Positions 22,133 to 56,668 of a stretch of 64,000 bases of DNA are shown here, piece by piece. Every line of letters starts with the position of its first letter. Position 1 is the stretch's first letter. Source of the stretch: a virus (lineage: Duplodnaviria > Heunggongvirae > Uroviricota > Caudoviricetes); the IMG/VR virus record IMGVR_UViG_3300009165_000005; one strand, written 5' to 3'. The notes below the pieces were generated by a model. The model had not been told where the DNA came from and ran no database searches. It saw nothing but the letters and a program-made list of their open reading frames with translations. Made by a program: the position numbers and the translations under genes.

Positions 22133-22167
22133 TTAGTTGTAGTCCTTACTGCATTCTCCGCAAAAAC

Positions 22168-22857: not shown

Positions 22858-22858
22858 G

Positions 22859-24411: not shown

Positions 24412-24499
24412 GCTCCTTCACGCCACCATAGCGGAGACCAGAGTACTCGAAACTCAATCCTTGCAGGAACCCCAGGGTTCCAATCTGGTGAGCGACCAC

Positions 24500-25273: not shown

Positions 25274-25364
25274 CTAGGTGGGGGCCAAGAGAAGAAAAGT
25301 CAGAATTTGTTAATTCTAAAATTCGAACCCGTTGAACATGGCTCACCTCTCTGCTTACTAGCAA

Positions 25365-26102: not shown

Positions 26103-26228
26103 TTCAAACCCTCAACCAGGTCGTTCATACACCAGTTGAAGATTGTTTTAACAATGAATCGAGACAAGGATTGAGAAGATATAAGCCTTTCGGCTCCGCC
26201 GTGTCTGCCATTCCACCACAAACGAGTT

Positions 26229-26308
26229 TCCTCACTAGGAGGGACTCGAACCCTCACGTCCTTTCGGACAGCGGATTTTCAATTGTAATCTTCTACAGCA
26301 TTCTCGAC
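26229..26308 (-). other. tRNA-like fragment (T-arm plus variable-arm hairpin, no matching 5' acceptor or D-arm)
   Basis: GAGGGTTCGAGTCCCTC T-arm preceded by a GTCCGAAAGGAC GNRA hairpin. No complement to the 3' acceptor CTAGTGA upstream. Confidence 0.35.
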
Positions 26309-26407
26309 TGGTACCATCATCGGGGCTCGAACCCGAACTCCATAGGAACAATGCCCTGGGGTACGTATCCCCAACACTGCGAGTCTTCCAATTTCCTCCA
26401 TGATGGT
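26309..26407 (-). tRNA. atypical 99-nt tRNA with a 21-nt structured insertion at the anticodon-loop position, CCA encoded
   Basis: Perfect acceptor ACCATCA/TGATGGT; T-arm TCGGGTTCGAGCCCCGA; 3' ACCA. Anticodon stem CAGTG/CATTG encloses TTGGGGATACGTACCCCAGGG instead of a 7-nt loop. Anticodon unresolved. Confidence 0.5.
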
Positions 26408-26409
26408 AT

Positions 26410-26495
26410 TGGTGCACGAAAGAGGACTCGAACCTCCACGGGATCTCTCCCACTATCACCTCAAAATAGCGCGTCTGCCCTTCCGCCACTCGTGC
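26410..26495 (-). tRNA. tRNA-Leu (GAG), class II, CCA encoded; paralog of the Leu tRNA at 15669
   Basis: Acceptor GCACGAG/TTCGTGC; anticodon stem CTATT/GATAG; loop TTGAGGT; long variable arm. Confidence 0.8.
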
Positions 26496-26529
26496 ATAGC
26501 TAATTCACTTTTAACCTAAGACCAGTATC

Positions 26530-27375
26530 ATGGATCGGACCCTTCAAGCCTTCGAGGACACCCTCATCACGCGCAACCTAGTAGCCCGAGTAGTTGAGGC
26601 AACTGAGTTTCCTACTGAGGAAGCTCGCAAGAAGTACTTGCAGAGTCATCCGAAAGCTAACCCAGCGAACCACACGGTTCGCAAGAACAAGACCCCTACT
26701 CAGTTCCGAAGAACTGACAAGACCCGTTGGGACGACGTACTCAAGAACACCAAGGGACTGAAGGAGCTTGGTGAGAAAGCCACCAAGGGCGATGAGGAAG
26801 CTAAGGCTGAGGTCTCAAAGAGGTACACGGCTCTCGTGGACCATGGCGAGTCGATGGCAGATGATGCCAAGTCCCTCACCAAGAAGCTCAAGGGAAACGC
26901 CAAACTTAGCGACAAGGCCAAAGAACACTTGGGGGAGCTCGAGAAGGCAATCAAGAAGTGGGACTCGATCTCCCACGCAGCCCAGAAGGCCAAGGGCCGC
27001 AACACTGAAGCTCAACTCCAACATGCCAACGAGGTCATGACAGCCGCTAGTACTGTCAGAACTCTAACCCACTGGTTCCAAGACCAGGCTGTTCAGGACA
27101 AAGCCTTGAAACGATCCTCTGAGGAATGGAAGACCGATGGTGAAACCATCGTTACCGCCAAGTACATGATAGATACTCGCAAGTTCTACGACTTGTTTGA
27201 CGATATTGAAGAGCATAGTTCCGCTATGGCAACAGCTCTAGGAAACTATGTACGAAATCCTGATAAGTTGAAGCCCCAATTGGACAAGCTTCTCTTATTC
27301 TCTAACCAAATCAAGATCGATCTCCAAATCCTCGGGAAGTTGGTTGCCAGACTGAAAGCTGGCGAGAACCCCTAG
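26530..27375 (+). CDS. paralog family member A (conserved N-terminal EFPTEEARKKYLQSHPKANPANH motif, Lys/Glu-rich tail)
   Basis: Shares its N-terminal motif with the ORFs at 29736-30251 and 31414-31797. Confidence 0.55.
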   Translation: MDRTLQAFEDTLITRNLVARVVEATEFPTEEARKKYLQSHPKANPANHTVRKNKTPTQFRRTDKTRWDDVLKNTKGLKELGEKATKGDEEAKAEVSKRYTALVDHGESMADDAKSLTKKLKGNAKLSDKAKEHLGELEKAIKKWDSISHAAQKAKGRNTEAQLQHANEVMTAASTVRTLTHWFQDQAVQDKALKRSSEEWKTDGETIVTAKYMIDTRKFYDLFDDIEEHSSAMATALGNYVRNPDKLKPQLDKLLLFSNQIKIDLQILGKLVARLKAGENP

Positions 27376-27775
27376 TAGGTTCCAGATTCCACCATTGACA
27401 AGAAATCGTGCGAGACGTCTATTGTTTCCGGTAATGTAGTCCACGCACAGCATTCAGTGGCGGAATCTGGTATTCGGAGCCATACACTAACTTGCTTTAG
27501 ATTGCAAGAGAAAAGTTTGGCCCTGACAAGGGATGGTAATGAGGGGCTTATGGCCTACGCATTGATGTGTCCAGAGATCCCTGGACTTGCATCCGCTCGT
27601 CCCGCGCCTTAGGGTCAGTTACTACCCACTGGAGTTCCTTACTAGGGAGCTCGAACTGGCGCCATCGCATAATCCCTCGCGAGATCAGTCGCTACTTTAG
27701 GACCGTTATTGTACTCACTACCGGCATTCAGGACCGATTGGACAATACACCGGAGATCACGTTAAGTCAAGTTGA

Positions 27776-27849
27776 TCAGAGTAAGAGGACTTGAACCTCC
27801 AATCTCGTGATCCCGAACCACGCGCTCTACCAAACTGAGCTACACCCTG
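27776..27849 (-). tRNA. tRNA-Pro (CGG)
   Basis: Acceptor CAGGGTG/TACTCTG; anticodon stem CGTGG/TCACG; loop TTCGGGA. Confidence 0.75.
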
Positions 27850-27888
27850 ATGAACCACGAAGACAAGAATTCGAAAGAGGAACGTACG

Positions 27889-27960
27889 GCGTCCTGACCA
27901 CTAGACGATCCCCGCATAGGTTGGAGCGGGGAGAGGGATTCGAACCCACGTGTCCGGCTT
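27889..27960 (-). other. orphan tRNA 3' half (T-arm, acceptor, CCA), a 6-nt linker, then an orphan 5' half with a perfectly complementary acceptor
   Basis: Minus strand: GTGGG TTCGAAT CCCTC TCCCCGC T CCA, linker ACCTAT, then GCGGGGA TC GTCT AGTGGTCA GGAC G. Acceptor strands GCGGGGA/TCCCCGC are 7/7 complementary but in 3'-then-5' order. No full tRNA can be assembled on either side. Confidence 0.5.
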
Positions 27961-27996
27961 GGATGGCAATGTACTCCTTCAGGCATTCTTCGTGAT

Positions 27997-28072
27997 TGGT
28001 GGCTGAGGTCGGGATCGAACCGACTACGCACAGATTTTCAGTCTGTCGCTCTACCATTTGAGCTACTCAGCC
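27997..28072 (-). tRNA. tRNA-Phe (GAA), CCA encoded
   Basis: Acceptor GGCTGAG/CTCAGCC; anticodon stem ACAGA/TCTGT; loop CTGAAAA; T-loop TTCGATC. Confidence 0.85.
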
Positions 28073-28077
28073 ATTAG

Positions 28078-28162
28078 TGCATCAGGAGAGAATCGAACTC
28101 TCACGGGAATTACCCCACTAGATTTTGAGGCTAGCGTGTCTGCCTAGTTCCACCACTGATGC
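28078..28162 (-). tRNA. tRNA-Leu (CAA), class II
   Basis: Acceptor GCATCAG/CTGATGC; anticodon loop CTCAAAA; long variable arm. Confidence 0.75.
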
Positions 28163-28166
28163 GTAG

Positions 28167-28250
28167 TACCCAAGGAGGGATTTGAACCCTCAAGCCACTA
28201 GGGCCTCCGGTTCTGAGCCGGAGCTGTATGCCAGGTTCCAGCACTTGGGC
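28167..28250 (-). tRNA. class II tRNA, anticodon loop CTCAGAA (CAG, Leu-like; second, divergent copy)
   Basis: Acceptor GCCCAAG/CTTGGGT; 6-bp anticodon stem CTCCGG/CCGGAG; long variable arm; T-loop TTCAAAT. Confidence 0.65.
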
Positions 28251-28326
28251 ATGGACCAGAGACAAGGGGTGTGAAGAGGGTTATTTTCTCCAATTGAATT
28301 GTACTCCCCACGAGCATTCTCTAGTT

Positions 28327-28403
28327 TGGTTGGCCCCATCAGATTCGAACTGATCACTTCACGCTTATCAGGCGTACGCTCTAACCAACTGAGCTACGGG
28401 CCA
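28327..28403 (-). tRNA. tRNA-Ile (GAT), CCA encoded
   Basis: Anticodon stem TACGC/GCGTG; loop CTGATAA; T-loop TTCGAAT. Confidence 0.8.
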
Positions 28404-28821
28404 ATAACTTCAAAGCATCCCACACCCCATCAGGAAGCGGGATCGTAGTCTGAATCATACCTATCTTCTGGTACTCTTGAAATTCCTTCAAAGCTTGTTC
28501 ACACACATCATCGCTTATATCAATGGTGGCAGTGATTCCAGTCTCCCTGACTTCGACAGTACCAACTGCGAAGTCACGCATGCAGATAGGTTCTGATACC
28601 GTCCAAACGAGGTTACCCAGAAGATTCAGCACTTCTTGGGAGTTCAACTCCAGCGTCGGAAGATCTGGAACTTGAAGTTGACCCCAGGCATGTCCAAACA
28701 TTATATCTTGGACGAAGGATCCGGGACCATCTTGACAATGAGGGCAGGGCATATCCCAAGATACACCGATGAAAGGCGAAGACAAGAGAGTTGAAGACAA
28801 GGGAGCCCTTCTAAATGCCAC
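28381..28821 (-). CDS. hypothetical protein (146 aa)
   Basis: Intact ORF; C-terminus overlaps tRNA-Ile by ~23 nt. Confidence 0.4.
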   Translation of the reverse strand: MAFRRAPLSSTLLSSPFIGVSWDMPCPHCQDGPGSFVQDIMFGHAWGQLQVPDLPTLELNSQEVLNLLGNLVWTVSEPICMRDFAVGTVEVRETGITATIDISDDVCEQALKEFQEYQKIGMIQTTIPLPDGVWDALKLLARSSVG

Positions 28822-28905
28822 TCGAATAGGTTTCCCTACTCGGCAGGATCTGCCCCTGCAAAGCTCCCGGGCGTAAGCCCCTGGTAATGTAGTCCTCAGT
28901 GCATT

Positions 28906-28999
28906 CTTCGCTTAGTAGTCCCTCCCGGACTCGAACCGGGACGTTCACAAGGAACTGCGGGTTTTAGGCCCGCCGCGGCTGCCTTTACGCCAAGGGACC
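28906..28999 (-). tRNA. tRNA-Leu (TAA), class II
   Basis: Acceptor GGTCCCT/AGGGACT; anticodon stem GCGGG/CCCGC; loop CCTAAAA; long variable arm; T-loop TTCGAGT. Confidence 0.75.
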
Positions 29000-29000
29000 A

Positions 29001-29342
29001 TTAGAGGTTACTCACTATCTGGGAGACCCTAGAGTAGAACCCAACTAGGTTCATCGGAACTCCTATGACTCCTTCTCGGTAACCAACCCCATAGCACCAG
29101 TTAGGCCGGTACCTGAAGATCAGTGACACCTGTAGTTGAGAAGCATCAAGCTCTAGGATCTTACCTCTTACAAAGTCATCTATCGTCGGGTGAAGGTCGA
29201 ATGCAGAGGGGAATAAGCCACGTTGATCTCCATAGGATCGAACGGCTTCCCACTGACCTTCTACATTGAGGAATAGCGCCGGAAGACTTACCCAACTAAT
29301 ACTCCCAGGTTCTATGGGTTCAATAGAGCAATAGGTAATCAC
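29001..29342 (-). CDS. hypothetical protein (113 aa)
   Basis: Intact ORF. Confidence 0.4.
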   Translation of the reverse strand: MITYCSIEPIEPGSISWVSLPALFLNVEGQWEAVRSYGDQRGLFPSAFDLHPTIDDFVRGKILELDASQLQVSLIFRYRPNWCYGVGYREGVIGVPMNLVGFYSRVSQIVSNL

Positions 29343-29587
29343 TCTTCAGGGCCTCCCCAGATGTTCTCGGTGATCGGTGGTAGCCTCTCGCCTGCTTCGA
29401 GAGCAAGGCGTAGTTCCTCCTCCATACGAACTAGCATAGCTTCGTAACGACGACGATCCTCCTCTGTCTCCTCAGGCTCAGGGATGATTCCATTTTCATC
29501 CTCTTCTTGGGAAACCCTTCGGCCCCTAATCCTTGCAGTAGCCATCTGACGCCCATCCACTCCCATGTAATTGGAAGCCCGTCCCAC
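29339..29587 (-). CDS. hypothetical acidic protein (82 aa)
   Basis: Intact ORF overlapping its neighbours by 4 nt. Confidence 0.35.
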   Translation of the reverse strand: MGRASNYMGVDGRQMATARIRGRRVSQEEDENGIIPEPEETEEDRRRYEAMLVRMEEELRLALEAGERLPPITENIWGGPEE

Positions 29588-29714
29588 CGCTTATGAGCCT
29601 CTGAGCCTCGGGCTTCCCGCACTCAGGGCAATCCGTCAAGGCTGGTTCCGTAATCTTCTGGATAGCCTCCCAGGTGTGCTGGCAAGCCTTGCAGAGGTAC
29701 TCGTACGTTGGCAT
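29526..29714 (-). CDS. FmdB-family zinc-ribbon protein
   Basis: MPTYEYLCKACQHTWEA...CPECG matches the FmdB pattern MPxYEYxCxxCxxxFE...CPxCG. Confidence 0.6.
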   Translation of the reverse strand: MPTYEYLCKACQHTWEAIQKITEPALTDCPECGKPEAQRLISGGTGFQLHGSGWASDGYCKD

Positions 29715-29735
29715 ACGAGCCTTGACACCGCGCGG

Positions 29736-30251
29736 TCAGATACTGGACCCAATAAACCTGAAAGCCACACGAGACTCAATCGAAGCCTCTTTGGCCTTCT
29801 GAACGAACTGACGCATCTTACCTTTGAGGATGTCGATGTCATCTTGAGTAGCCGGTCGACCTAGTTGAGTGCTCAGGGCTTTACTCCACTGTTGGACGAA
29901 CGGATCCCTCGCATCCGGCTTAGGGCTCTCTGGGGGCTTCTTATCGAAAGCAGGATCAGCCTTAGCTTTCTCCTTCTGAACGAACTGCTTCATCTGCCCC
30001 TTTAGGATATCGAAGTCAGCATCCGTTGCAGGTCTACCAAGACGTTCACTTAGAGCCTTTTCCCACTGATTCTTGAAGTGGTCATCTTTACCACCACCGT
30101 CCGACTTAGGCTTGGATTCAGACTTCGGTTTAACCTCACCCTTATCCTCAACAACTTTATGCTTGCTCTTGTCAGCTTTAGGGTGCTCTGACAGGTACTT
30201 CTTCAGGGCTTCTTCGTTTGGGAAGTTCTTTGAAATGAGGTCCATAATCAA
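29736..30251 (-). CDS. paralog family member B (FPNEEALKKYLSEHPKADKSKH motif; Lys/Pro-rich, internally repeated tail)
   Basis: Shares its N-terminal motif with the ORFs at 26530 and 31414. Internal repeat LGRPAT(D/Q)(A/D)D(F/I)DILKG(Q/K)M(K/R)QFVQK occurs twice. Confidence 0.55.
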   Translation of the reverse strand: MIMDLISKNFPNEEALKKYLSEHPKADKSKHKVVEDKGEVKPKSESKPKSDGGGKDDHFKNQWEKALSERLGRPATDADFDILKGQMKQFVQKEKAKADPAFDKKPPESPKPDARDPFVQQWSKALSTQLGRPATQDDIDILKGKMRQFVQKAKEASIESRVAFRFIGSSI

Positions 30252-30299
30252 GCTTCTATAGAAGAGGATTACTGGAACTGAGATTCGTACGTCGGCATA

Positions 30300-30725
30300 T
30301 TAACCTCGTGGTATGTTATACTCACCTGGAAGGTGGCCACCCAGCATCTTGATCAGCTTGTTCCTAGCCTGAAGGATAATCTTCTGAAGTAGGTTCGGAT
30401 CTCTCCGTGGGGGAGGCTCGTACTTAAAGGTGTTGGCCCGAGCCTCTCTCAAGGAGTACATGATTCCTCTAACTCCATTGGGTTTAGGTAAAGCATCTGG
30501 AAACCCAGGATCAACCCTTGGGGTTCGAATCACCTTCGCGTTCCAAACCTCACCAATCAATTCCCCATCCCATTCAGGTCGAGGTCGAGGCTTACACGCT
30601 TGGTAAGTCTCGGCTTCTGCGATAATCTCCGCATCTTGGGGATGAACAAGCAGAACTGCTATGGGAAGGTCCTCTTTCTCTACTTCTGACATAGCATCTA
30701 AGATATGATTCAATATGTGGCTCAT
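30300..30725 (-). CDS. hypothetical protein (141 aa)
   Basis: Intact ORF. Confidence 0.4.
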   Translation of the reverse strand: MSHILNHILDAMSEVEKEDLPIAVLLVHPQDAEIIAEAETYQACKPRPRPEWDGELIGEVWNAKVIRTPRVDPGFPDALPKPNGVRGIMYSLREARANTFKYEPPPRRDPNLLQKIILQARNKLIKMLGGHLPGEYNIPRG

Positions 30726-30753
30726 AATTAGCCACTACCCCGAGAGTAAATTG

Positions 30754-30826
30754 TGACGCTAGGGGGATTTGGACCCACCGTTGGATGAGTGAAAGTCATC
30801 TCGCCTTACCATTAGCGGATAGCGCC
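30754..30826 (-). tRNA. tRNA-Glu (TTC)
   Basis: Acceptor GGCGCTA/TAGCGTC; anticodon stem GATGA/TCATC; loop CTTTCAC; T-loop TCCAAAT. Confidence 0.7.
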
Positions 30827-30830
30827 GAGG

Positions 30831-30905
30831 TGTCCCTGATCGGATTCGAACCGATGTTCCAAGATCGAGAATCTTGTTGCCTAGTCCGGGCTAGCAGACA
30901 GGGAC
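30831..30905 (-). tRNA. tRNA-Glu (CTC)
   Basis: Acceptor GTCCCTG/CAGGGAC; anticodon stem CAAGA/TCTTG; loop TTCTCGA; T-loop TTCGAAT. Confidence 0.7.
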
Positions 30906-30978
30906 GTGATAGAGAGACAAGGAACGAACCAAAGGGGTCAATGTTCGAGATTGTACTTCAGTCCTGCATTCTCTCCAG

Positions 30979-31061
30979 CGGAAGGGAAGGGATTCGAACC
31001 CCCAGAGCTGTTACACTCGATTGTTTTCAGGACAATGCCCCTCACCAATAGGAGCCCTTCC
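30979..31061 (-). tRNA. tRNA-Ser (TGA), class II
   Basis: Acceptor GGAAGGG/CCCTTCC; anticodon stem ATTGT/ACAAT; loop CCTGAAA; long variable arm. Confidence 0.65.
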
Positions 31062-31071
31062 GTAAGGTGGT

Positions 31072-31145
31072 TGCGAGAATAGAGGGTTGAACTCTACTGT
31101 TTCCAGGTTATGAGCCTGGCGTGTAATGCCGTTTCACTCTCCCGC
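31072..31145 (-). tRNA. tRNA with CAT anticodon (second copy)
   Basis: Acceptor GCGGGAG/TTCTCGC; anticodon stem CCAGG/CCTGG; loop CTCATAA; T-loop TTCAACC. Confidence 0.7.
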
Positions 31146-31230
31146 AGAGCCGGTAAGTGGAGTCGAACCACCCTGAACATCTTTACGAAAGATGTTCATT
31201 CCCACGATTGCTATAGGGACAGGGCACTCC
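31146..31230 (-). other. tRNA-like fragment (T-arm plus long anticodon-like hairpin, no pairing acceptor)
   Basis: GGTGGTTCGACTCCACT T-arm. 10-bp hairpin GAACATCTTT/AAAGATGTTC with a CGT-containing loop. No 5' strand complementary to TACCGGC found. Confidence 0.3.
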
Positions 31231-31299
31231 CGGATACACACCGGGCGTGCCCAGAGGTCCTCTACTCCCCCCACTCGTTTCTCGTAGATATGAGGTTGT

Positions 31300-31377
31300 T
31301 GGTTGCGGAGAGTAGGATTTGAACCTACGACCTTCGGCGTATGAGACCGACGAGCTACCTAACTGCTCTATCCCGCA
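31300..31377 (-). tRNA. tRNA with CAT anticodon (third copy), CCA encoded
   Basis: D-arm GAGC AGTTAGGTA GCTC; anticodon stem TCGGT/GCCGA; loop CTCATAC; T-loop TTCAAAT; 3' ACCA. Confidence 0.7.
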
Positions 31378-31413
31378 ATACTATGTTGAACTACTTATCC
31401 CAAGCCCTAAGAG

Positions 31414-31797
31414 ATGCCGAGGAGGAACCTGCTCCGTGAATTTGAAGATGCACTCATCATCAGTCGAGTTGCATCAAGAGCCCTCGAAGCCATTGAGTTC
31501 CCGAGTGAGAAGGCCTACGAAGACTACATGCGGAAGCACCCAAAGGCTGATCCAGACAATCACGACGTGATCCTGGACTTCAAGCCTCCTGCCCCGCCCA
31601 AGCCAGACCGCCCAACACCTCCTCCGCACTTCCCCAGACCGGAGAAGCCGAAGAGGCCGAGGAAGCCTCACAAGATTCCTAAGCTCAACCCGCCCCCTAA
31701 GTTCTACCAGCCTCCGACGCCCTACAAGGCGCCGGAGATTCCGAAGCTCTATCGACCACCAGCTTGGCTCCCCAAGGAACCAAAGAAGCCCAGGTAG
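31414..31797 (+). CDS. paralog family member C (EFPSEKAYEDYMRKHPKADPDNH motif; Pro/Lys-rich tail)
   Basis: Shares its N-terminal motif with the ORFs at 26530 and 29736. The tail is low-complexity PKP/PPP repeats. Confidence 0.5.
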   Translation: MPRRNLLREFEDALIISRVASRALEAIEFPSEKAYEDYMRKHPKADPDNHDVILDFKPPAPPKPDRPTPPPHFPRPEKPKRPRKPHKIPKLNPPPKFYQPPTPYKAPEIPKLYRPPAWLPKEPKKPR

Positions 31798-31844
31798 TCA
31801 CCAGCTCGCGTAGGTGATGGCCCGCTCCTTAGAATAAAAAGTCG

Positions 31845-31912
31845 TTCCCAAGAGGATTCGAACCTCTTGTTCACCCACGCCATGGCTACATGGGATTCGA
31901 ACCCAAGTGGTT
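31845..31912 (-). other. two orphan tRNA T-arm/3'-end fragments
   Basis: TTGGGTTCGAATCCCAT+GTAGCCA and AGAGGTTCGAATCCTCT+TGGGAAC+G. No complementary 5' acceptor strands nearby. The second is followed by TTTTTATT. Confidence 0.3.
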
Positions 31913-31947
31913 GAGGTATTGTCCCCAACACGACCTTCAAAACGACG

Positions 31948-32031
31948 TGGCTCCAGGAGTAGGATTCGAACCCACGATGTATTTCTACGGCACGTTAACA
32001 GCGTGCTGCCTTTCCGCTCGGCCATCCTGGA
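31948..32031 (-). tRNA. class II tRNA (Tyr-like body) with a GTT (Asn) anticodon, CCA encoded
   Basis: Perfect acceptor TCCAGGA/TCCTGGA; D-arm GCC GAGCGGAAA GGC; anticodon stem GCACG/CGTGC; loop CTGTTAA; variable arm CGTAGAAATACATC with a GAAA tetraloop. Confidence 0.7.
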
Positions 32032-32288
32032 AAAATGAGGATCGTGTTGCCACAACCCTCCCAGACGTGAGTTGGTGCTCACGCCCCGGAGTAACCCTTG
32101 CGAGTTACCCCGTGAAACATACGGTCAGGAATGAATCACTACCACACAGGCACGGTCGCTGAAGCCCTCGGTATACTTGAGGTCGATCACGGCACGTCTG
32201 CTTCCCTGGTCCACAACAGGCCAGTTAGGTCAGCACCCATTCACTGTTTGAATTGTCAAGGATCACAGTAGACGGTTGTCTACTCGAT

Positions 32289-32362
32289 TGGTTCCGACAC
32301 CTAGATTCGAACTAGGGTTCAAGGATTCAAAGTCCTTTGTCCTACCGTTGGACGATGTCGGA
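32289..32362 (-). tRNA. tRNA-Gln (TTG), CCA encoded
   Basis: Perfect acceptor TCCGACA/TGTCGGA; anticodon stem AAGGA/TCCTT; loop CTTTGAA. Confidence 0.8.
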
Positions 32363-32375
32363 TCAGCACATTTAG

Positions 32376-32446
32376 TGAGGCATCACAGATTTGAACTGAA
32401 ATCTACGGTTTAAGAGACCGTTGCTCTACCATTGAGCTAATACCCC
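32376..32446 (-). tRNA. tRNA-Lys (CTT)
   Basis: Acceptor GGGGTAT/ATGCCTC; anticodon stem ACGGT/ACCGT; loop CTCTTAA. Confidence 0.7.
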
Positions 32447-32456
32447 GTTGAGAAAG

Positions 32457-32529
32457 TGAAGGTGGTGAGGATCGAACTCACGAGTCTTCGGCTTAAAAGG
32501 CCGCGGCTTTACCACTTAGCTACACCTCC
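32457..32529 (-). tRNA. tRNA-Lys (TTT)
   Basis: Acceptor GGAGGTG/CACCTTC; anticodon loop CTTTTAA; T-loop TTCGATC. Confidence 0.7.
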
Positions 32530-32596
32530 GTGTTGTTTTGGCCCGTCTTCCTCGGGCTTGTTCTTGCGTTTCATTCCAGCCTTCTACTTTCCTTAG

Positions 32597-32679
32597 TGAT
32601 GTCGTATGGAGTTGAACCATCTAGTCGTAAGACCCGTGATTTACAGTCACAGTCGCTTCCCGGAGCGAATCCCGACACC
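32597..32679 (-). tRNA. tRNA-Tyr (GTA), class II
   Basis: Acceptor GGTGTCG/CGACATC; anticodon stem TGTGA/TCACG; loop CTGTAAA; long variable arm. Confidence 0.7.
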
Positions 32680-49406: not shown

Positions 49407-49973
49407 ATGATAACTATTACGAGTGAACTCCTTGTAGGTTGGGAGGTTCCCAACCTTATCTCCGACGAACTACTTCCGATGGGAGTGATGGGAGTGTTTG
49501 ATGCTCCGATTTCTTCTGTGAACAAGGTTCAAATTCTCCTACGTGAAGAGGTTCTTGATAGGAGGGGGCTAGTATATGTAGTGGCGAGGGCGGTACGCCG
49601 AGCCTGTACGAAGACAAAATGGTCCAACCCTGATAGCCTTCGAGCGTTAGGCCTGTGTGATCGGTACGCTGCTGGAGAAGAGATCCCGAAGGAATATCTA
49701 GAGAAGGCGGCTGAGGCTGCTTCTCTAGCAGCCGTTGAAGTTGTTAGGCGGAATGCTAGGGCGGCTTCTAATGATACTGCTTGGGCTGCTTCTAGGGCTG
49801 CTGATGTTATGACTACTTTGGCTAATGCTAATGTTGCTGCTAGAGACGCTGTTAATTGGGCTGCTAGAGCTATTGCTCCTAGTGCGGAGGATGAGCGAAA
49901 ATCCCAACTCACTGATTGCCGCGAGTGGCTTCTGAGGGTGAACTCACAAGTAGTTTCCCGTACCAACGAATAA
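49407..49973 (+). CDS. tandem paralog array, copy 1 (Ala-rich)
   Basis: N-terminal ITSELLVGWEVPNLISDELLPMGVMGVFDAPISS, an AARAA-rich core, and EERxxQLTDCREWLL near the C-terminus. Confidence 0.5.
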   Translation: MITITSELLVGWEVPNLISDELLPMGVMGVFDAPISSVNKVQILLREEVLDRRGLVYVVARAVRRACTKTKWSNPDSLRALGLCDRYAAGEEIPKEYLEKAAEAASLAAVEVVRRNARAASNDTAWAASRAADVMTTLANANVAARDAVNWAARAIAPSAEDERKSQLTDCREWLLRVNSQVVSRTNE

Positions 49974-49983: not shown

Positions 49984-50580
49984 ATGATTATTACGAGTGA
50001 ACTCCTTGTAGGTTGGGAGATTCCCAACCTTATCCCAGACGAACTACTTCCGATGCGGTTGATGGATGTGTTCGGAGCATCGATCCCCTCTAAGAACAAG
50101 GTTCGGCTTCTCCTACATGAGGAGGTTCTTGGGCGAAGGGGAATGGTCTATGTAGCGGCTCGGGCTGCTCGCCGAGCCTGTACAGTGACAGAGTGAGACC
50201 ACCCTGATAGCCTTCGAGCGTTAGATCTATGCGACCGATACGTTGAGGGGGAAGATATCCCAGAAAAAGAGTTATGGCGGTCTTCTAATGCGGCTGATGT
50301 GGCAGCTAGGGCTGCTTCTAATGCTTCTGTAGCGGCGAAGGCTATCTCTAGGACTGCTGCTCGAGCTGCTTGGGTTGCTAATGTTGCAGCTAATGCCGCT
50401 AGAGCTGCCCCTGATACTTGGGCTGCTACTTGGGTTTGGGCTTGGGCTACTACTGATGGGGTTAGTGAGGAGGAGAGAAGAGCTCAACTTACTGATTGTC
50501 GAGATTGGCTTCTAAGGAATTCTCCACAAGAAAGAGCTCCCGTGCCAACTCGGTACCAGCGAATAATGAGGTCCTTGTGA
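49984..50580 (+). pseudogene. tandem paralog array, copy 2, interrupted by an in-frame TGA (50194-50196) where copy 1 has TGG
   Basis: Same frame continues after the TGA (ORF 50299-50580). The sequence aligns to copy 1 throughout. Confidence 0.5.
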
Positions 50581-51131
50581 TCCCCATTACGAAAGAACTC
50601 CTTGAGAAGTGGGGTTTTTTCGGCCTTATCCCAGACGAACAACTTCCGATGGGAGTGATGGGAGTGTTTAATGCTTCGATTTCTTCTAGGGACAAGGTAG
50701 AGCTTCTTCTACATAAGGAGATTCTTGGGCAGAGGGGGCTAGTATATGTAGCGGCGAAGGCGGCGCGCCGGGCCTGTACGAAGACAGAATTGTCTCATTC
50801 TGATAGCCTTCGAGCTCTAGATTTATGTGATCGATACGTTGAAGGGGAAGCAGTTTCAGAAGAAGAGCTAGCGAGAGCTGTTAATGCTGCTAACGAAGCT
50901 GCTAGAGCTATTGCTGAGGCTGCTTCTACTTGGGCTGCTTTTGACGCTTCTGTTTCTGATGATACTAGAGATGTTTGGGCAGCTCGAGCTGCTGTTTTTG
51001 CTGCTGGAGCTGCTTTGGGTACTTGGACTGTTTCTGATGCTTGGGATGCTACTACTTGGGCTTGGGATACTACTGGTGGGGTTAGTGATGAAGAAAGAAA
51101 CTCCCAACTTATTGTCGAGATTGGCTTCTAA
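50577..51131 (+). CDS. tandem paralog array, copy 3 (GTG start overlapping the copy-2 stop as GTGA; 4-nt deletion frameshifts the C-terminus)
   Basis: VIPITKELLEKWGFFGLIPDEQLPMGVMGVFNASISS aligns to copies 1 and 2. Repeat-unit junction motif taccagcg(a/g)ataatgagg recurs at each boundary. A decayed fourth unit starts near 51180. Confidence 0.45.
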   Translation: MIPITKELLEKWGFFGLIPDEQLPMGVMGVFNASISSRDKVELLLHKEILGQRGLVYVAAKAARRACTKTELSHSDSLRALDLCDRYVEGEAVSEEELARAVNAANEAARAIAEAASTWAAFDASVSDDTRDVWAARAAVFAAGAALGTWTVSDAWDATTWAWDTTGGVSDEERNSQLIVEIGF

Positions 51132-51968: not shown

Positions 51969-52178
51969 GGGAACGGCCCTCGAAACCCCTTTAGACTAGG
52001 GTCGAGGGCCTATATACCCAGGTCACCAGACGATAGTCTAAGTACGCCCAGTAACTTTAGTCGCTATTAGCATCGACCGTTGGTTCTGTCAATCTATTTC
52101 AGAGCAATGTCCGTCTTGACCTCGAAGACACTTTCATCTTGAGCATGAGGTTTTGTCCGCGATCGATGAAGGCGAAGG

Positions 52179-52604
52179 TTGCTCCTAGGCACTTTGAGGA
52201 TGGACACACTTTTTGCAGTCACCGGGCTTCTCCACAAGAATGGGTTGCTCCTCGCCGTATCCCGCAAGTACAACCCAGAGGACTTTGGGCTCCCTGGTGG
52301 GAAAGTTGATCCAGGAGAGACTCCAGAACAGGCCCTTATCCGAGAGGTCTGGGAGGAGACGGGCCTTGAGGTCTTGTCTTACGAGGCCATCTTCGAAGAC
52401 AAAGATCGAGTTGAGAATGGGGAAATCCGTCCGTGTCGAACCTACCGAGTTCTCGAGTGGAGAGGGGAACTGAAGACGAAGGAGACGGGCGTTGTGAAGT
52501 GGGTTAAGCCTTCGGTGATTACGGATCCATCTACTTCATTCCACGAGTACAACTCTAAGCTAATTGCGTACTTAGAATTGTCTGGAAACCTTCAGTTGGC
52601 TTGA
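52179..52604 (+). CDS. Nudix hydrolase
   Basis: Nudix box [26 protein letters not shown] (GX5EX7REUXEEXGU). Confidence 0.8.
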
Positions 52605-52875
52605 GGCTGTCGAAGTTTAGGGGTGATGGGATCGTATCCGAGTGGAAGGTTCCAATGAACCTTCCAGCTTCATCAGGCTTGGCTTCTCGAAGTTTGAACT
52701 CTGCTTTGAGTTCATCGCAGATTCGAAATACTCGGAATACTCGAGTACAGGGGTGAGCTACATGTAACGAGTCGTCTTGCACGTATACGAGGCCTTTGTC
52801 CAAATCAACGTAGGTCATCCAGAAGAGATAACCTTCGGGATCCTCGAGTACCATCCCGGGCTGCAAGTTCGTCAT
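52555..52875 (-). CDS. hypothetical protein (106 aa)
   Basis: Intact ORF. Confidence 0.35.
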
Positions 52876-52937
52876 AGGGTTACACGTCGTTCAACAATTT
52901 TTCCTGAGAGTTGTTGTGGTCGGTGTAATAGCCGTAA

Positions 52938-53573
52938 ATGTCGGACTTTCTAGAGTGGTATAATCTGATCTTCTACATTCCAATGGCGATAGGGTTGTTG
53001 GCAACCCTTGGCCTTGGAATTTCTGGGGTCGACCATGATGTCGGGCTTCATGCGGATGTCGATGGGGACTTCAGTGGAGATCACGACGCTAATGGGGATC
53101 ACGATGGAGAAGGAGATTGGATCTTGGGGTTCCTCGGAATCGGTCGAGTACCTATTGCTATCACCTTCATGTCTCTGTTCCTTATCTTCGCTGGGGTCGG
53201 GATCTGCATGAACATCCTCCTAGGCGGGCTCATAAAGCAGTGGTCAGGGTTTGCTTTAGCCTCCGTGGCAGTGGCTTTCATCGCCACTTTCTTTGGGACA
53301 GCCTTCGTGAGTCGTCTAGTTGGTAGGGTGATGCCAACCACTGAGACAGATTCCGTAAAGAAGATTGATCTCATTGGGTGTACTGGAGTGGCTACTCTTC
53401 CTTGTGATTCGAGTGGTGGCCTAGCTCAGATCAAGAATCCTAAGGGTGATCTCTATCAGATCCAGTGCAAGTCCGAGAAGCCTATCCTCAAGGGTTCCAA
53501 GATCATGGCCATTGAGTACGAAGAGACTTCCGATACGTTCACCGTAGTTGTCGATCCCACATTTGGTGGGTGA
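52938..53573 (+). CDS. NfeD-like membrane protein (partner of SPFH/flotillin)
   Basis: His/Asp-rich N-terminal segment DHDVGLHADVDGDFSGDHDANGDHDGEGD. Two TM helices. C-terminal OB-like beta domain CDSSGGLAQIKNPKGDLYQIQCKSEKPILKGSKIMAIEY. Sits immediately upstream of flotillin. Confidence 0.65.
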   Translation: MSDFLEWYNLIFYIPMAIGLLATLGLGISGVDHDVGLHADVDGDFSGDHDANGDHDGEGDWILGFLGIGRVPIAITFMSLFLIFAGVGICMNILLGGLIKQWSGFALASVAVAFIATFFGTAFVSRLVGRVMPTTETDSVKKIDLIGCTGVATLPCDSSGGLAQIKNPKGDLYQIQCKSEKPILKGSKIMAIEYEETSDTFTVVVDPTFGG

Positions 53574-53591
53574 CTTTGAGACACCCACCAA

Positions 53592-55559
53592 ATGTGGGAG
53601 AAAGATGTAAATCAGATGGGTATTGGTCTATTTTTCCTGTTACTATTTGGTATCCTCTTGATTGGGTCCCCAATCGGAGTGAACACCTTCACACACCACC
53701 ACTTGCCTGGATCTTCGTCTGTGATTATGACCCTGAGCGGGGTCCTCCTGGTCCTTTTGTGTGTGGTCCTCCTAACCATTACGAAACTTTATGTGAAGAC
53801 GAAAGCTAGCGAGGCTTTCGTCAAGACCGGTATGGGCGGCCTCAAAGTCATTCGTGATGGTGGAGCCATCATCCTCCCCTTCATTCATCAAACAGTACGG
53901 GTGTCTCTCGAAACCATCAAGTTGGATGTTGCACGCATTGGACTTGAAGCGCTCATCACCAGTGACAAGTTACGGGCAGACATTAAGGCTGAATTCTTCG
54001 TTCGAGTCCAAGCTGAGGATGAGGACATCAAAGCTGCTGCTCGATCTCTTGGTGACAAGATGAGCGAAGGCAGTGTGAACCTCCAGCAACGAGGTTTTGA
54101 CCGAGATGGGGGTGTCTACAGGTCTAGTGTAGCTGCCCTTATCGAGGACAAGCTCGTGTCCGCTCTTCGTACTAGTGCAGCTAAGAAGACCCTCGAACAA
54201 CTCAATAGTGACAGAGATGACTTCCTCAAAGAGGTTATGCAAGGGGTTACGGCTGACTTGAAGCACAATGGGTTCCTCCTCGAAACAGTGACCATCTCCA
54301 AGTTGGATCAGACCGACGTCACCAACCTGAAGCAAGACAACATTTTTGATGCTCAAGGGATGAGGACTATTGCGGAGATCACTCAGAAGAACCTGACCGA
54401 GAAGAATGCCATCGTCCGCATGGGTGAGCAAGCCCGTAAGGACCAGGACGTTCAGACTCGAACCCAAGTTCTCGAGTTGGAGCGAAGGCAATCTGAGGCT
54501 GAAGCTACTCAGGCGGCTCAGGTAGCCTCGATTCGGGCAGAGCAGGAACGAATCGGTAAGGAGAGCCAAGTTGAAGCTCAACGTAAGGTTGATGTAGCCA
54601 CCACCGAGAACGCCAAGCTCACTATTCTAGCCACAGTGGCTCAGGAGCAGGCTACTGAAATCGCCCGGCGTGAGCAACAGAAGGCCATTGTCGAAGCTGA
54701 ACAAAAGGTCGAGGTTGCCAAACGATCCCAGCAGAAGGCTATTGCAGCCTCGGAAGCCGAAAAGGCAAAGGCTGAGGCCTTGCTGGCTGAGGCTGAGGCT
54801 GAGCGTCAGAAGGCTCGCCAAAACATCCAAACCGTGGAGGCTGTTGCAGCGGCCGAACGTGATAAGGAGAAGGCTGTTATTGCAGCTAAGGGCGATGCCG
54901 AGAAGAACTTCGTATACGCCCAAAGAATGGCTGATGCTGAGGCCTACAAGACCATGAAGGATGCTGAGGCTCGTAAGGCAGCGGCTGATGCTGAAGCTGA
55001 AGCTGTTACCAAGAGAGCCACTGCAGCTTCGAGAGCTGCTCAACTCGAGGCTGAGGGTCAGAAGGCTAAGCTCCTTGCTGATGCTGAAGGTCAGAGAGCC
55101 AAGCTCCTTGCTGATGCTGAAGGCCAAAAGGCTGTGGCTATGGTTCCGATCGAGGTCAAGGCTCGTGAGGTAGAGATCGAAAAGCAACGAGTTGAAGAAG
55201 TACTCAAGCCCGAACTCGAAGCTCGGTCTGCCAATGGTGAAGCAGCTCAAAACTTCGAATTGGCTAAACTTCGAATCGAACAAGAGGCTCACGTTCGAAT
55301 CGAATCGGCTCGAGCCACTGCTCAATTCTATGGGAAGATCCAAGCCAATGTCTACGGGACTCCGGAGGATGTGGCTAAGATGGGAGCCCACTTCAATGCT
55401 GGTATGGGACTCAGTCAAGCCTTCGGTGGATTCCTCGCCGGAGCAGACGCTTCAACGGTCGATACGATTCAGAAGACCATTGGAGCCGTCAACAATCTGG
55501 CAGATGCCGCTGCATCCAAGTTGAAGGGGAAATCCCTCGAGAGTACCTCAAACGCCTAA
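53592..55559 (+). CDS. flotillin/SPFH (band-7) family protein with long coiled coil
   Basis: N-terminal TM plus SPFH-like domain. Then ~300 aa of Ala/Glu/Lys/Gln-rich heptads (AEAEAVTKRATAASRAAQLEAEGQKAKLLADAEGQRAK...). Confidence 0.7.
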   Translation: MWEKDVNQMGIGLFFLLLFGILLIGSPIGVNTFTHHHLPGSSSVIMTLSGVLLVLLCVVLLTITKLYVKTKASEAFVKTGMGGLKVIRDGGAIILPFIHQTVRVSLETIKLDVARIGLEALITSDKLRADIKAEFFVRVQAEDEDIKAAARSLGDKMSEGSVNLQQRGFDRDGGVYRSSVAALIEDKLVSALRTSAAKKTLEQLNSDRDDFLKEVMQGVTADLKHNGFLLETVTISKLDQTDVTNLKQDNIFDAQGMRTIAEITQKNLTEKNAIVRMGEQARKDQDVQTRTQVLELERRQSEAEATQAAQVASIRAEQERIGKESQVEAQRKVDVATTENAKLTILATVAQEQATEIARREQQKAIVEAEQKVEVAKRSQQKAIAASEAEKAKAEALLAEAEAERQKARQNIQTVEAVAAAERDKEKAVIAAKGDAEKNFVYAQRMADAEAYKTMKDAEARKAAADAEAEAVTKRATAASRAAQLEAEGQKAKLLADAEGQRAKLLADAEGQKAVAMVPIEVKAREVEIEKQRVEEVLKPELEARSANGEAAQNFELAKLRIEQEAHVRIESARATAQFYGKIQANVYGTPEDVAKMGAHFNAGMGLSQAFGGFLAGADASTVDTIQKTIGAVNNLADAAASKLKGKSLESTSNA

Positions 55560-55591
55560 CCCTTGAGAAGTTGTTGGGGTCGGTGTAACAC

Positions 55592-55864
55592 TTGCAAATG
55601 TCAGACTTAGCGTGGTTCCTTGGGGTCGGTCGAGTACCTTATGCCAGCGTCTTCATGTCGTTTTTTCTGATCTTCGTCGGAACTGCGATCTGCATGGACA
55701 TTTTCTTCTGGGGTATGCCAAAGCAAGGGTTTAGGGTTACTCTGATCTCCTTGGTGGTGGCTTTCAGCACCGCTTTCTTTGGGACAGCCATCGTGAGTCG
55801 CCTAATTGGTGAAATCATGCAAACTATGGAGCCAGCTCCAGTAAAGAACAATCCTATTCAGTAG
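55592..55864 (+). CDS. NfeD-like fragment (TM core only; partial duplicate of 52938-53573)
   Basis: LAWFLGVGRVPYASVFMSFFLIFVGTAICM aligns to NfeD residues ~62-140 but lacks the His/Asp-rich N-terminus and the OB domain. Its upstream leader is duplicated too (55565-55610 vs 52895-52940). Confidence 0.45.
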   Translation: MQMSDLAWFLGVGRVPYASVFMSFFLIFVGTAICMDIFFWGMPKQGFRVTLISLVVAFSTAFFGTAIVSRLIGEIMQTMEPAPVKNNPIQ

Positions 55865-55974
55865 CGAAGTTATGTGCTGTCAACAGTCTGGCTGATGCCG
55901 CCGCATCCAAGTTTCACAGAACGGCTTCCCCTGAAAACACCTCGAGCACCTAACCTGCGGTAATCATTAGGTGA

Positions 55975-56010
55975 AAAGGGCTTGGTGAAAACCAAGCCCT
56001 TTTCGCATTT
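55975..56010 (+). terminator. intrinsic terminator after the flotillin operon
   Basis: 12-bp stem AAAGGGCTTGGT/ACCAAGCCCTTT with a GAAA loop followed by TCGCATTTG. Confidence 0.5.
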
Positions 56011-56020
56011 GAGGTGCCCT

Positions 56021-56668
56021 ATGCGGTGGTACACTCCTCGTGTGGATACCATTATTTACCTAAAGTCCCGATGGAAGATCACTCTAAATAGAGCTGAGGC
56101 TCTAGGAACTAGTCCTTCCCTGATCGATTCAATCTTATACGCCTACGGAGAGAAGGAAAGGCACTACCACACAAGAGAGCATCTTCGACACATGTTCGAA
56201 GTCTATGACCGGTATTTTCTCAAACCAAATCCAATTCATGAGTTGACCTTCTGGTACCACGATTTCTTTTACGACCCAACCCGATCAGACAACGAGGATA
56301 GGAGTGGCGCGCTTGCGAAGAAGGTGATTGATCTCACTCTCCAAGTTCCGTCTGGGGCAGGATCCCAGGTACGGGATTTGATTCTCTTCAGTCACTACAC
56401 AAGGCCCCCAGTGACGCGAGATGAGATGGTCATGCACGACGTTGATCTAGCCATCTTCGGGGAGAGTTCCGACCTATTCAACAAGTACGAGAAAGACATT
56501 CGCCAAGAGTATGCCTTCGTACCTGAAGCAGACTACCGCAAGGGGCGAGCCGGAATCCTGAAGAACTTCCTTCGGGATCCATTCTACTTTACTCCTGAGT
56601 TGTGCTACAGCTCCTACGAGGAACTAGCCGAAAGGAACATTCGTAGGTCAATCGACTTGCTAAAATAA
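56021..56668 (+). CDS. HD-domain phosphohydrolase (putative)
   Basis: H...H (ERHYHTREHLRH), HD (TFWYHDFFYD) and D (MHDVDLAIFG) motifs. Start placed at MRWYTP because the ORF-track start lies inside the terminator hairpin. Confidence 0.45.
   Translation: MRWYTPRVDTIIYLKSRWKITLNRAEALGTSPSLIDSILYAYGEKERHYHTREHLRHMFEVYDRYFLKPNPIHELTFWYHDFFYDPTRSDNEDRSGALAKKVIDLTLQVPSGAGSQVRDLILFSHYTRPPVTRDEMVMHDVDLAIFGESSDLFNKYEKDIRQEYAFVPEADYRKGRAGILKNFLRDPFYFTPELCYSSYEELAERNIRRSIDLLK

Follow-up and report, generated by a model that had tools for sequence, protein, structure and literature searches.

A probable pseudogene remnant of an old tandem duplication behind an intact yqiJ/yqiK-type operon in what looks like a huge phage genome

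The window, i.e. the whole stretch of 64,000 nucleotides that was analysed (IMG/VR record IMGVR_UViG_3300009165_000005), looks like a part of a huge phage genome and contains an intact operon of a yqiJ-like gene and a flotillin gene (52938-55559), which is a genuine NfeD2/SPFH2 (YqiJ/YqiK-type) pair. Downstream of this operon lies a second unit of ~394 nt (55562-55955), in which the leader, a fragment of the yqiJ-like gene, and the 3' end of the flotillin gene follow each other in tandem register and are succeeded by the terminator-like hairpin of the operon (Table 1). Judging from sequence comparison, this second unit (unit 2) is probably a pseudogene remnant of an old tandem duplication of the operon (unit 1), and the operon itself has remained under selection; the remnant would later have been lost from the closest relative, L005. 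The first-pass annotation had recognized an NfeD-type gene followed by an SPFH/flotillin gene with a long coiled coil, which Pfam and the predicted folds bear out (the coiled coil as predicted long helices), and had explained the repeated segments by a recent duplication or recombination, of which only the tandem register of a partial copy, and not the recent date, stands up to the comparison described below.

Table 1. Features of the intact operon, the second unit, and the hairpin behind them.
Feature	Position	Strand	Description
Conserved 5' leader of yqiJ-like gene, unit 1	52903..52937	+	TGAGAGTTGTTGTGGTCGGTGTAATAGCCGTAA preceding ATG
yqiJ-like NfeD2 gene (copy 1)	52938..53573	+	211 aa: TM1, His/Asp-rich disordered loop, TM2, TM3, C-terminal OB domain
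21-bp hairpin	53555..53599	+	Covers yqiJ stop codon (53571-53573) and the stretch upstream of the flotillin ribosome-binding site
Invariant translation-initiation block	53596..53618	+	GGGAGAAAGATGTAAATCAGATG; Shine-Dalgarno-like GGGAG, ATG-TAA start-stop (53605-53610), flotillin ATG (53616)
Flotillin-type SPFH gene (yqiK-like)	53616..55559	+	647 aa from conserved start; 655 aa from ATG 53592
Leader copy, unit 2	55562..55597	+	Begins 3 nt past flotillin stop codon; 44/53 aligned positions (83%) = 52903-52958
Probable yqiJ remnant (copy 2)	55598..55864	+	88-codon ORF (MSD...); TM2-TM3 core kept
Probable flotillin 3' end remnant	55856..55955	+	Last ~30 codons and stop region; 76/102 aligned positions (75%) = 55455-55566
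Terminator-like hairpin closing operon	55971..56006	+	16-bp stem, downstream of unit 2

The product of copy 1 matches the Pfam domain YqiJ_N (PF21001) over residues 12-116 (33.3 bits against a curated cut-off of 23; E = 6.3e-8), and nearly all of its listed homologues carry the same domain. The AF2 model contains three predicted TM helices (residues 2-28, 73-99, and 104-131), one more than had initially been counted, and a five-strand beta domain (residues 149-205; block pLDDT 83-91). The top PDB fold matches of this model are all NfeD proteins, namely YbbJ (8z5g, chain entry 8z5g_AA), 1510-C (3wwv; TMt 0.77, rmsd 2.5), YuaF (2k14), and 3cp0, and the model and these matches together identify an NfeD-type OB-fold domain; in the Pfam search, PF07290 gave no sequence match at E<=0.01. 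Five residues of the His/Asp loop, which is predicted to be disordered, are at least 90% conserved among 34 homologues (H33, D34, D48, D50, and D54), and one may conjecture that this segment binds metal. Compared with its orthologues, copy 1 shows omega values of 0.05-0.11. The leader of unit 1 is nearly invariant across the window, L005, L008, and L007, despite synonymous dS values of >1.4 between those genomes, and is likely to be a promoter or translation-initiation element; a search for a canonical sigma-70 match in this leader found none.

The flotillin gene had been annotated as encoding 655 aa; the start codon conserved in five relatives is ATG 53616, which shortens the protein to 647 aa. 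The protein belongs to the SPFH/Band_7 family (Pfam PF01145, 57.8 bits against a cut-off of 23.6), and its AF2 model comprises two N-terminal helices, an SPFH domain (residues 66-232), and long helices at residues 243-401, 407-509, and 513-571. The flotillin complexes 9l3g and 9bq2 are the best whole-chain PDB fold matches, and further matches include the Band 7 domain of flotillin-2 (1win, TMt 0.70) and stomatin SPFH domains. The flotillin C-terminal domain PF15975 is not matched by sequence here, although it is matched by the homologue in phage Phosso. Omega of the flotillin gene is 0.06-0.09 in comparisons with L005, L009, and L010. Between the yqiJ stop codon and the conserved flotillin start there is a 42-nt gap. 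The arms of the hairpin at this junction are 95% complementary and dominate the structure predicted for the 106 nt around them (-40.9 kcal/mol); in the relatives, a shorter hairpin with a compensatory change (CCCAC/GTGGG vs CCTAC/GTAGG) occupies the same site. Within the initiation block, GAAAGATGTAAATCA and ATGGGTAT are unchanged in six genomes, with flotillin dS values of up to 1.3. The position of the yqiJ-like gene directly upstream of the SPFH2/flotillin gene is kept in L001, L005, L007, L008, L009, and L010; the relatives with a conserved operon include contigs of 435-463 kb, and flotillin homologues are found on contigs of up to ~660 kb.

The yqiJ-yqiK genes of Escherichia coli form an NfeD2-SPFH2 pair (Hinderhofer et al. 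2009, PMC2636767). The operon described here resembles this pair, as well as yuaF-yuaG (NfeD2-FloT) of Bacillus subtilis, in having an NfeD-type gene directly upstream of a flotillin-class SPFH gene, a YqiJ_N domain, a membrane-anchored C-terminal OB fold, and a Band_7 domain with long, Ala/Glu-rich helices predicted behind it. It differs from both in that it is encoded by a huge phage and not by a cell, in the two predicted N-terminal helices of the flotillin, and in having no sequence match to the Pfam models YqiJ_OB and Flot. The same two-gene module (YqiJ_N and YqiJ_OB, then Band_7 and Flot) is present in the cultured jumbo phage Phosso of Sinorhizobium (PV764938, 469 kb), where it lies beside XpaC-like and TelA-like genes, with ~110 nt up to the next annotated gene. 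The Phosso SPFH protein is 34% identical to the flotillin of the window and is shorter (566 vs 647 aa); E. coli YqiK, with ~550 aa, is shorter as well. In the more distant Phosso YqiJ, the loop is Asp-rich with a single His at its end. Among 50,697 phage records, only 4 yielded any match, and a DNA search of the 50,697 records with 52000-57000 yielded none. Scans of IMG/VR yielded one locus with YqiJ, on the viral contig L001, which agrees with the phage context of the window, and no confirmed relative with the flotillin protein, and Rfam gave only sub-threshold chance matches over 52500-56500. Because neither operon protein has a PADLOC, NCBIfam, or PDB sequence match, a reading of the operon as a defence system is unsupported.

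Unit 2 repeats each of the segments reported initially, i.e. leader, TM core, and flotillin end, so that the resemblance extends beyond low-complexity TM sequence. The leader core (52909-52948 vs 55569-55608) has 83% identity across 40 nt and includes a 19-mer that occurs at just two sites in the 64 kb, with none expected in shuffled sequences; its 3' part, TAATAGCCGT, is invariant in four genomes and has become TAACACTTGC in unit 2. The most plausible start codon of the second ORF is ATG 55598, whose position corresponds to the yqiJ start. The ORF lacks TM1 and the His/Asp loop, which correspond to an in-frame deletion of 174 nt, and also lacks the OB domain. The TM core aligns without gaps over 235 nt (53128-53362 vs 55614-55848; 72% identity, BLAST E = 1.5e-30), and the ORF as a whole shares 72% nucleotide and 55% amino acid identity with copy 1. 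A ~2.1-kb deletion between two ATT codons, at positions 53373 and 55467 of unit 1, joins it to the flotillin remnant, whose core (55485-55522 vs 55876-55913) is 89% identical over 38 nt (E = 1e-7) and which reads, in its own frame, AVNSLADAAASKFHRTASPENTSST up to the stop codon, compared with AVNNLADAAASKLKGKSLESTSNA in unit 1. Several small indels have accumulated in unit 2 beside the two large deletions. The terminator-like hairpin beyond it (-30.4 kcal/mol for the fold of 55955-56015) shows compensatory changes in L009 (GGGCTTGGT/ACCAAGCCC vs GGGCATTGT/ACAATGCCC) and lies ~16 nt past the flotillin stop codon in both L005 and L009; it was not listed by the consensus scan because its T run is short (TTTT) and partly within the stem. 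A scan of metagenomes with the leader-copy DNA pattern returned three short contigs with one copy each, which carry no information on a tandem structure.

The divergence between the copies bears directly on the age of the duplication. Between copy 1 and copy 2, dS is 0.59 when 78 codons are compared and 0.49 for a set of 49 codons, which is ~15 times the flotillin dS between the window and L005 (0.033), and the duplicate is therefore much older than the split from L005. Over the same 49 codons, dS between copy 1 and its orthologues is 0.79 for L009, 1.4-1.8 for L008 and L007, and saturated for L001; the flotillin dS between the window and L009 is 0.455. From these values we infer that the duplication occurred at about the time of the L009 split or after it, and long before the L005 split. 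The copies differ by 17-28% per segment, and thus are neither near-identical nor younger than the split from relatives without the unit, as a recent segmental duplication would be.

Several lines of evidence indicate that copy 2 has lost coding constraint. When changes were polarized, 45 were assigned to the branch of copy 2 and 13 to that of copy 1 (relative-rate test, p = 2.6e-5), and their distribution over the three codon positions is 23/12/10 and 1/2/10, respectively, so that the third-position bias of the functional copy is absent from the faster-evolving one, as in a decaying duplicate. The pairwise omega between the copies is 0.50 (vs 0.05-0.11 between orthologues), the figure that neutral evolution of copy 2 combined with constraint on copy 1 would give; the dN predicted on this assumption is ~0.32, and that found is 0.30. 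Identity between the units is uniform at 72-83% in coding and non-coding pieces alike, and the otherwise conserved 3' half of the leader is altered as well; counting against neutrality, two segments exceed the ~75% that it would predict, namely the 38-nt flotillin piece (89%) and the 5' part of the leader (a single mismatch among 19 nt). Orthologues share 36 columns with at least 90% conservation, of which copy 2 retains 24 and has lost 12, including the change of PTTETDS to QTMEPAP. The 88-aa ORF has no Pfam, PHROG, NCBIfam, or PADLOC match, is without a match in the IMG/VR scan, and matches only itself among 5.8 billion proteins. Readthrough of its stop codon (TAG 55862) by a phage tRNA(CTA) into the flotillin frame was considered and ruled out, since the frame past this codon is not the flotillin frame owing to a +2 indel.

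In L005, the flotillin stop codon is followed by 67 nt and then by an HD gene, without a second unit, and the arrangement is the same in L009, L008, and L010; the unit is also absent from a 435-kb contig, as judged by gene coordinates only. The window and L005 diverge by ~0.7% over 53200-55550 and differ at 2 positions over 55940-56092, so that both flanks of the unit are near-identical. With 26% divergence, the second copy must predate the split of these two genomes, and L005 would therefore have lost it. Copy-number variation among relatives, which had been proposed as a check, thus exists, and it reads as loss in L005 rather than gain in the window. The flotillin end of L005 is the ancestral single-copy sequence, also present in L009, and therefore fits a genome that never had the unit equally with one that lost it precisely; among these observations, only the near-identity of the flanks favours loss. 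A reading of the L005 flotillin end as a unit 1/unit 2 chimera that would prove repeat-mediated deletion was rejected, given that L009 shows the same ancestral sequence, which agrees with a precise deletion but is no proof of one. As the second unit occurs in just one lineage, its history rests on ~390 nt. Identity between the window and L005 falls from ~99% to ~92% at 56093 and to ~80% in a tail-fibre-like gene, and no homology is found over 58113-58700. At first this boundary in the mosaic, with 98% identity to L005 on one side and 84.5% on the other, was taken for a recombination junction at the unit, an idea dropped when finer mapping placed it at ~56093, ~140 nt beyond the unit.

The following order of events would account for these observations. 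The whole unit, from leader to flotillin stop codon, would have been duplicated in tandem, at a junction that, by reading of the sequences, may be marked by a CCTG microhomology. The second copy would then have been freed of coding constraint and have evolved roughly neutrally. The 174-nt deletion would have removed TM1 and the His/Asp loop from copy 2, and the ~2.1-kb deletion the OB domain and ~95% of the flotillin gene, leaving ~390 nt, in which the smaller indels and the TAG stop codon would have arisen later. In L005, recombination between the two flotillin 3' repeats, which share ACCTC, would most plausibly have removed the remnant and restored the single-copy sequence. The remnant, where it persists, is presumably co-transcribed with the operon. 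Tandem-duplication remnants in other phage and bacterial genomes likewise show a tandem register, a raised non-synonymous rate, deletions, and presence/absence variation among close relatives, and compared with these unit 2 has nothing unusual save that both large deletions were in frame when they arose.

Unit 2 could also be the scar of unequal recombination between diverged co-infecting relatives, one operon having been joined after the other and then mostly deleted. This origin would suit the strongly mosaic genomes, whose identity shifts past 56093, and the inter-copy dS of 0.5-0.6 resembles that between the window and L009; we consider it unlikely, however, since copy 2 is closest to copy 1 and L005, both at the protein level (59%) and at synonymous sites, and to no other lineage, and no intact gene of the copy-2 type was found in the 5.8 billion proteins or IMG/VR. 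A long neutral phase would be needed under such a recombination too, because the dN of 0.30 is far above the ~0.05 expected for orthologues at that dS, and the outcome would therefore be the same, a decaying remnant. That the duplication or recombination was recent and specific to this genome, as first proposed, is very improbable: the tandem register and the closest relative without the unit would agree with it, but segment identities of only 72-89%, a divergence ~15 times that from this relative, and the accumulated deletions and indels would not. It is scarcely credible that the structure is an assembly artefact in which two strains were fused into a chimera. The DNA comes from a metagenome, and repeats may lead an assembler astray, but contigs from three samples or assemblies, not necessarily independent (JGI 3300027693, JGI 3300009146, and Logan SRR5468433), are 100% identical to the window over the whole structure and both junctions, no strain with an intact copy-2-type gene is known, and units that differ by 26% are expected neither to collapse nor to be mis-joined.

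A functional role for the 88-aa ORF, as a TM-only NfeD paralogue that is co-transcribed and modulates assembly of the YqiJ/flotillin complex, appears distinctly improbable. The ORF is uninterrupted, with its ATG, the MSD start, and part of the leader kept, and neither of the large deletions (174 nt, and 2094 nt between the ATT codons) shifted the frame when it arose, which hints weakly that the reading frame is or was under selection; FFGTA and GRVP are retained, and no terminator-like site lies between flotillin and the ORF, the strong hairpin being downstream of it. An open frame was nevertheless rejected as evidence of function, since 25% of sequences subjected to 28% random substitution still have an open frame. 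Against a function also stand the distribution of the branch-specific changes, 35 of which (out of 45) affect the first or second codon position, the loss of one third of the family-conserved residues, and the lack of any family or homologue for an ORF that neither the sister genome L005 nor any other relative carries. One might still conceive of a live 88-codon remnant as a small 'decoy' subunit that tunes YqiJ/flotillin assembly and, more broadly, of a clade of huge phages that builds its own flotillin microdomains on the host membrane. We regard this picture as decidedly doubtful; if true, it would add a viral function that is absent from the literature searched, in which no papers on phage-encoded SPFH or flotillin were found.

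If unit 2 is a pseudogene remnant, it reflects ordinary genome evolution, namely the datable history of a duplicate that arose, decayed, and was lost in a mosaic phage genome, and serves to warn annotators that the 88-aa ORF is probably no gene. The intact operon, under strong purifying selection (omega about 0.06-0.1), is of more interest. In structure, the two predicted models best match the SPFH-NfeD complex QmcA-YbbJ of E. coli (8z5g) and the flotillin-1/2 cage (9bq2 and 9l3g), which serve as a working model for how an SPFH protein and its NfeD partner may assemble; sequence identity in these structural alignments is only 14-22%. By analogy, the phage flotillin may form a membrane-attached oligomeric cage or microdomain with its NfeD partner, and the two proteins might assemble such a scaffold on the host inner membrane during infection. 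Extrapolating from cellular homologues only, candidate roles of a virus-encoded NfeD-flotillin scaffold would include membrane remodelling, protease control, and the stabilization of membrane proteins in a long infection, for which phage Phosso provides a tractable test system. In one relative, an FtsH-like gene adjoins the operon, an observation that bears on the candidate role in protease control.

The operon in the window is of the NfeD2-SPFH2 (yqiJ-yqiK/yuaF-yuaG) type described by Hinderhofer et al. 2009 (PMC2636767), which upholds and refines the assignment to an NfeD-like gene and a flotillin made in the first-pass annotation. In Pfam, the first gene product scores above threshold for YqiJ_N, and Band_7 is matched by the second. 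In an AlphaFold2 model (input alignment of 34 homologues), the YqiJ-like protein has three predicted transmembrane (TM) helices (residues 2-28, 73-99, and 104-131), not the two initially proposed, a disordered His/Asp-rich loop (residues 30-60), and a C-terminal domain of five confidently predicted strands. The best PDB matches of this model are NfeD proteins, i.e. YbbJ (QmcA-YbbJ complex), P. horikoshii 1510-C, B. subtilis YuaF, and 3cp0. The loop may bind metal, as first proposed: H33, D34, D48, D50, and D54 are conserved within the clade of the window. The loop of the more distant YqiJ of Sinorhizobium phage Phosso is Asp-rich with a single His at its end. In the flotillin model, an SPFH domain follows two N-terminal helices and is itself followed by long helices that total ~330 residues; flotillin-1/2 complexes rank first among its PDB matches, followed by stomatin, prohibitin, and HflK/C. 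Both genes evolve under strong purifying selection, with omega at 0.05-0.11 in the YqiJ core and at 0.06-0.09 in flotillin. A small internal repeat expansion of three tandem 33-nt units (EAEGQKAKLLA/DAEGQRAKLLA/DAEGQKAVAMV) is present in the flotillin helical region.

Features of the operon, the second unit, and their surroundings in the window.
Feature	Position	Strand	Source or similarity
yqiJ-like gene, 211 aa	52938-53573	+	ORF map
Flotillin ORF, 655 aa	53592-55559	+	ORF map
Short ORF after flotillin	55592/55598-55864	+	ORF map
Strong hairpin after short ORF	55973-56004	+	sequence
Leader repeat	52909-52948 vs 55569-55608	+	83% identical
TM core repeat (TM2-TM3 of yqiJ)	53128-53362 vs 55614-55848	+	235 nt ungapped, 72% identical, E 1.5e-30
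Flotillin 3'-end repeat	55485-55522 vs 55876-55913	+	89% identical, E 1e-7
33-nt units in flotillin coiled coil	55047-55145		
tmRNA (tag ANDNAIAEAA)	14844-15192	-	
Dense array of 37 tRNA genes	15577-32679	-	
Separate tRNA, anticodon CTA (amber-suppressor type)	46343-46416	-	
Tandem paralogous gene family, 168-211 aa	47983-51131	+	
NUDIX hydrolase gene, two genes upstream of operon	52179-52604		PADLOC candidate-defence model PDC-S07, E 3e-16

Five relatives share the flotillin start at ATG 53616 (MGIGLFF...), which is preceded by an invariant block, GAAAGATGTAAATCA, containing an ATG-TAA start-stop. Upstream of this block, a 21-bp hairpin spans the yqiJ stop codon (junction 53555-53618), and relatives keep a shorter version that carries a compensatory change. 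The hairpin and block together suggest that synthesis of flotillin is translationally coupled or controlled.

The operon is followed by a second unit, an old tandem duplicate that is now a ~390-nt pseudogene remnant, present in the window lineage and absent from its sister. As first annotated, the leader, the TM core, and the flotillin 3' end recur after the operon; repeat finding, local alignment, and BLAST confirmed all three as direct repeats whose order is shared by the two units. A leader 19-mer occurs at only two sites in the window, both of them leaders (0 expected by chance). The start-to-start spacings of the repeats are 2660 (leader), 2486 (TM core), and 391 nt (flotillin end), so that, relative to unit 1, 174 nt are missing close to the start of unit 2 and a further 2095 nt from between its TM core and its flotillin end. 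In gapped alignment, the copies are 83% identical over the leader and gene start, 72% over the core, and 75% over the whole flotillin-end piece (55856-55955). Contigs from three samples are 100% identical to the window over the entire structure, and there is very little likelihood of an assembly artefact.

The dS between the two TM cores is 0.59 for 78 codons. For the 49 codons that the related contig L009 covers as well, it is 0.49, whereas copy 1 and L009 differ by 0.79 over those codons. Copy 1 differs by 1.4-1.8 from the related contigs L008 and L007 and is saturated against the distant viral contig L001; the two copies thus share a later common ancestor than these lineages do. The closest relative of the copy 2 protein is also copy 1. 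Between the window and its closest relative, L005, flotillin dS is only 0.033 and the TM core is identical, yet L005 has no second unit: the flotillin stop leads directly to the terminator and an HD-type gene. No second unit was found in L009, L008, or L010 either, and a 435-kb contig has the single-copy arrangement as judged by gene coordinates. To either side of the unit, the window and L005 are nearly identical, with ~0.7% divergence over 53200-55550 and 2 mismatches over 55940-56092; the next mosaic breakpoint is at ~56093. Given the 26% divergence of the copies and the shallow L005 split, the unit must be older than the split and have been lost in L005, and the earlier description of the duplication as recent was incorrect.

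The unit would have been duplicated in tandem before the two lineages separated, and L005 would then have lost unit 2 when the two flotillin-end repeats recombined at a shared ACCTC, an event that would yield exactly the single-copy sequence of L005 and L009. Alternatively, and less parsimoniously, unit 2, or unit 1, may have moved between lineages by recombination in this mosaic region. Identity to L005 falls from ~99 to ~92% at 56093, a position within the HD-type phosphohydrolase gene, and is ~76-83% in a tail-fibre-like gene (56879-57721); 58113-58700 has no homology, and beyond it identity is again 96-100%. Mosaicism of this kind around a host-range gene is typical of phages.

Several features point to decay of copy 2. 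With L008, L007, and L010 as outgroups, 45 substitutions fall on the copy-2 branch versus 13 on the copy-1 branch (p = 2.6e-5), the former chiefly at first and second codon positions (23/12/10) and the latter chiefly at third positions (1/2/10). The pairwise omega of 0.50 is what would be expected of one neutral copy and another constrained at about 0.08. Copy 2 is altered at 12 of the 36 columns that are >=90% conserved in 37 orthologues, including the PTTETDS motif after TM3, and half of the leader's invariant 3' segment has changed as well. It has no family match and no homologue but itself among 5.8 billion proteins, and its coding and non-coding pieces have diverged about equally. The 88-codon frame of copy 2 is still open (expected 25% of the time), and the two large deletions, one of 58 codons and one of 698 codons that runs between two ATT codons, initially preserved the frame; later came the loss of 3 nt, the gain of 2 nt, and a TAG. 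The open frame and in-frame deletions are at most a weak hint of constraint. Since no terminator-like site was found between flotillin and the remnant, and the operon hairpin, with compensatory changes in L009, lies 3' of the remnant, the latter is probably transcribed as the 3' tail of the operon.

As genome evolution, the duplicate is ordinary. More interest attaches to the conserved NfeD-flotillin module carried by the phage, although deposited phage genomes already include annotated examples. YqiJ homologues are encoded on 435-463 kb contigs, and an IMG/VR viral contig is among the relatives, indicating that the window is part of a huge phage. A dense tRNA array, a tmRNA, and a CTA tRNA are a huge-phage hallmark, and the window carries 38 tRNA genes, including tRNA(CTA), and a tmRNA. 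NrdD, GroEL, Ro/TROVE-like, RtcB-like, clamp-loader, and tail-fibre-like proteins are also encoded. Flotillin has any match in only 4 of 50,697 deposited phage records, among them the cultured phage Phosso (469 kb), which has the same YqiJ and SPFH/Flot pair. In Phosso (PV764938, 355001-359181), YqiJ (YqiJ_N plus YqiJ_OB; annotated as hypothetical), SPFH/Flot, XpaC-like (Halogen_Hydrol), and 'toxic anion resistance' (TelA-like) genes are consecutive. Directly 3' of the flotillin gene in L001 (IMGVR_UViG_3300037225_000673) lies an FtsH-like gene (8749-10677; AAA and Peptidase_M41, HEAGH motif), an adjacency that recalls the HflK/C SPFH-FtsH partnership. In L008 (3028-4966), flotillin is called as two ORFs (98 and 550 aa), a split due to a frameshift or to an error in sequencing; two further ENA contigs show the same split. 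The NUDIX hydrolase gene adjoins the operon in all relatives examined. Within the tandem paralogous family, the one member searched against Pfam (50496-51131) has no match there and shares 46% amino acid identity with another (49407-49973; E 1e-40), and several nucleotide self-matches of 69-74% occur; this neighbourhood is prone to tandem duplication.
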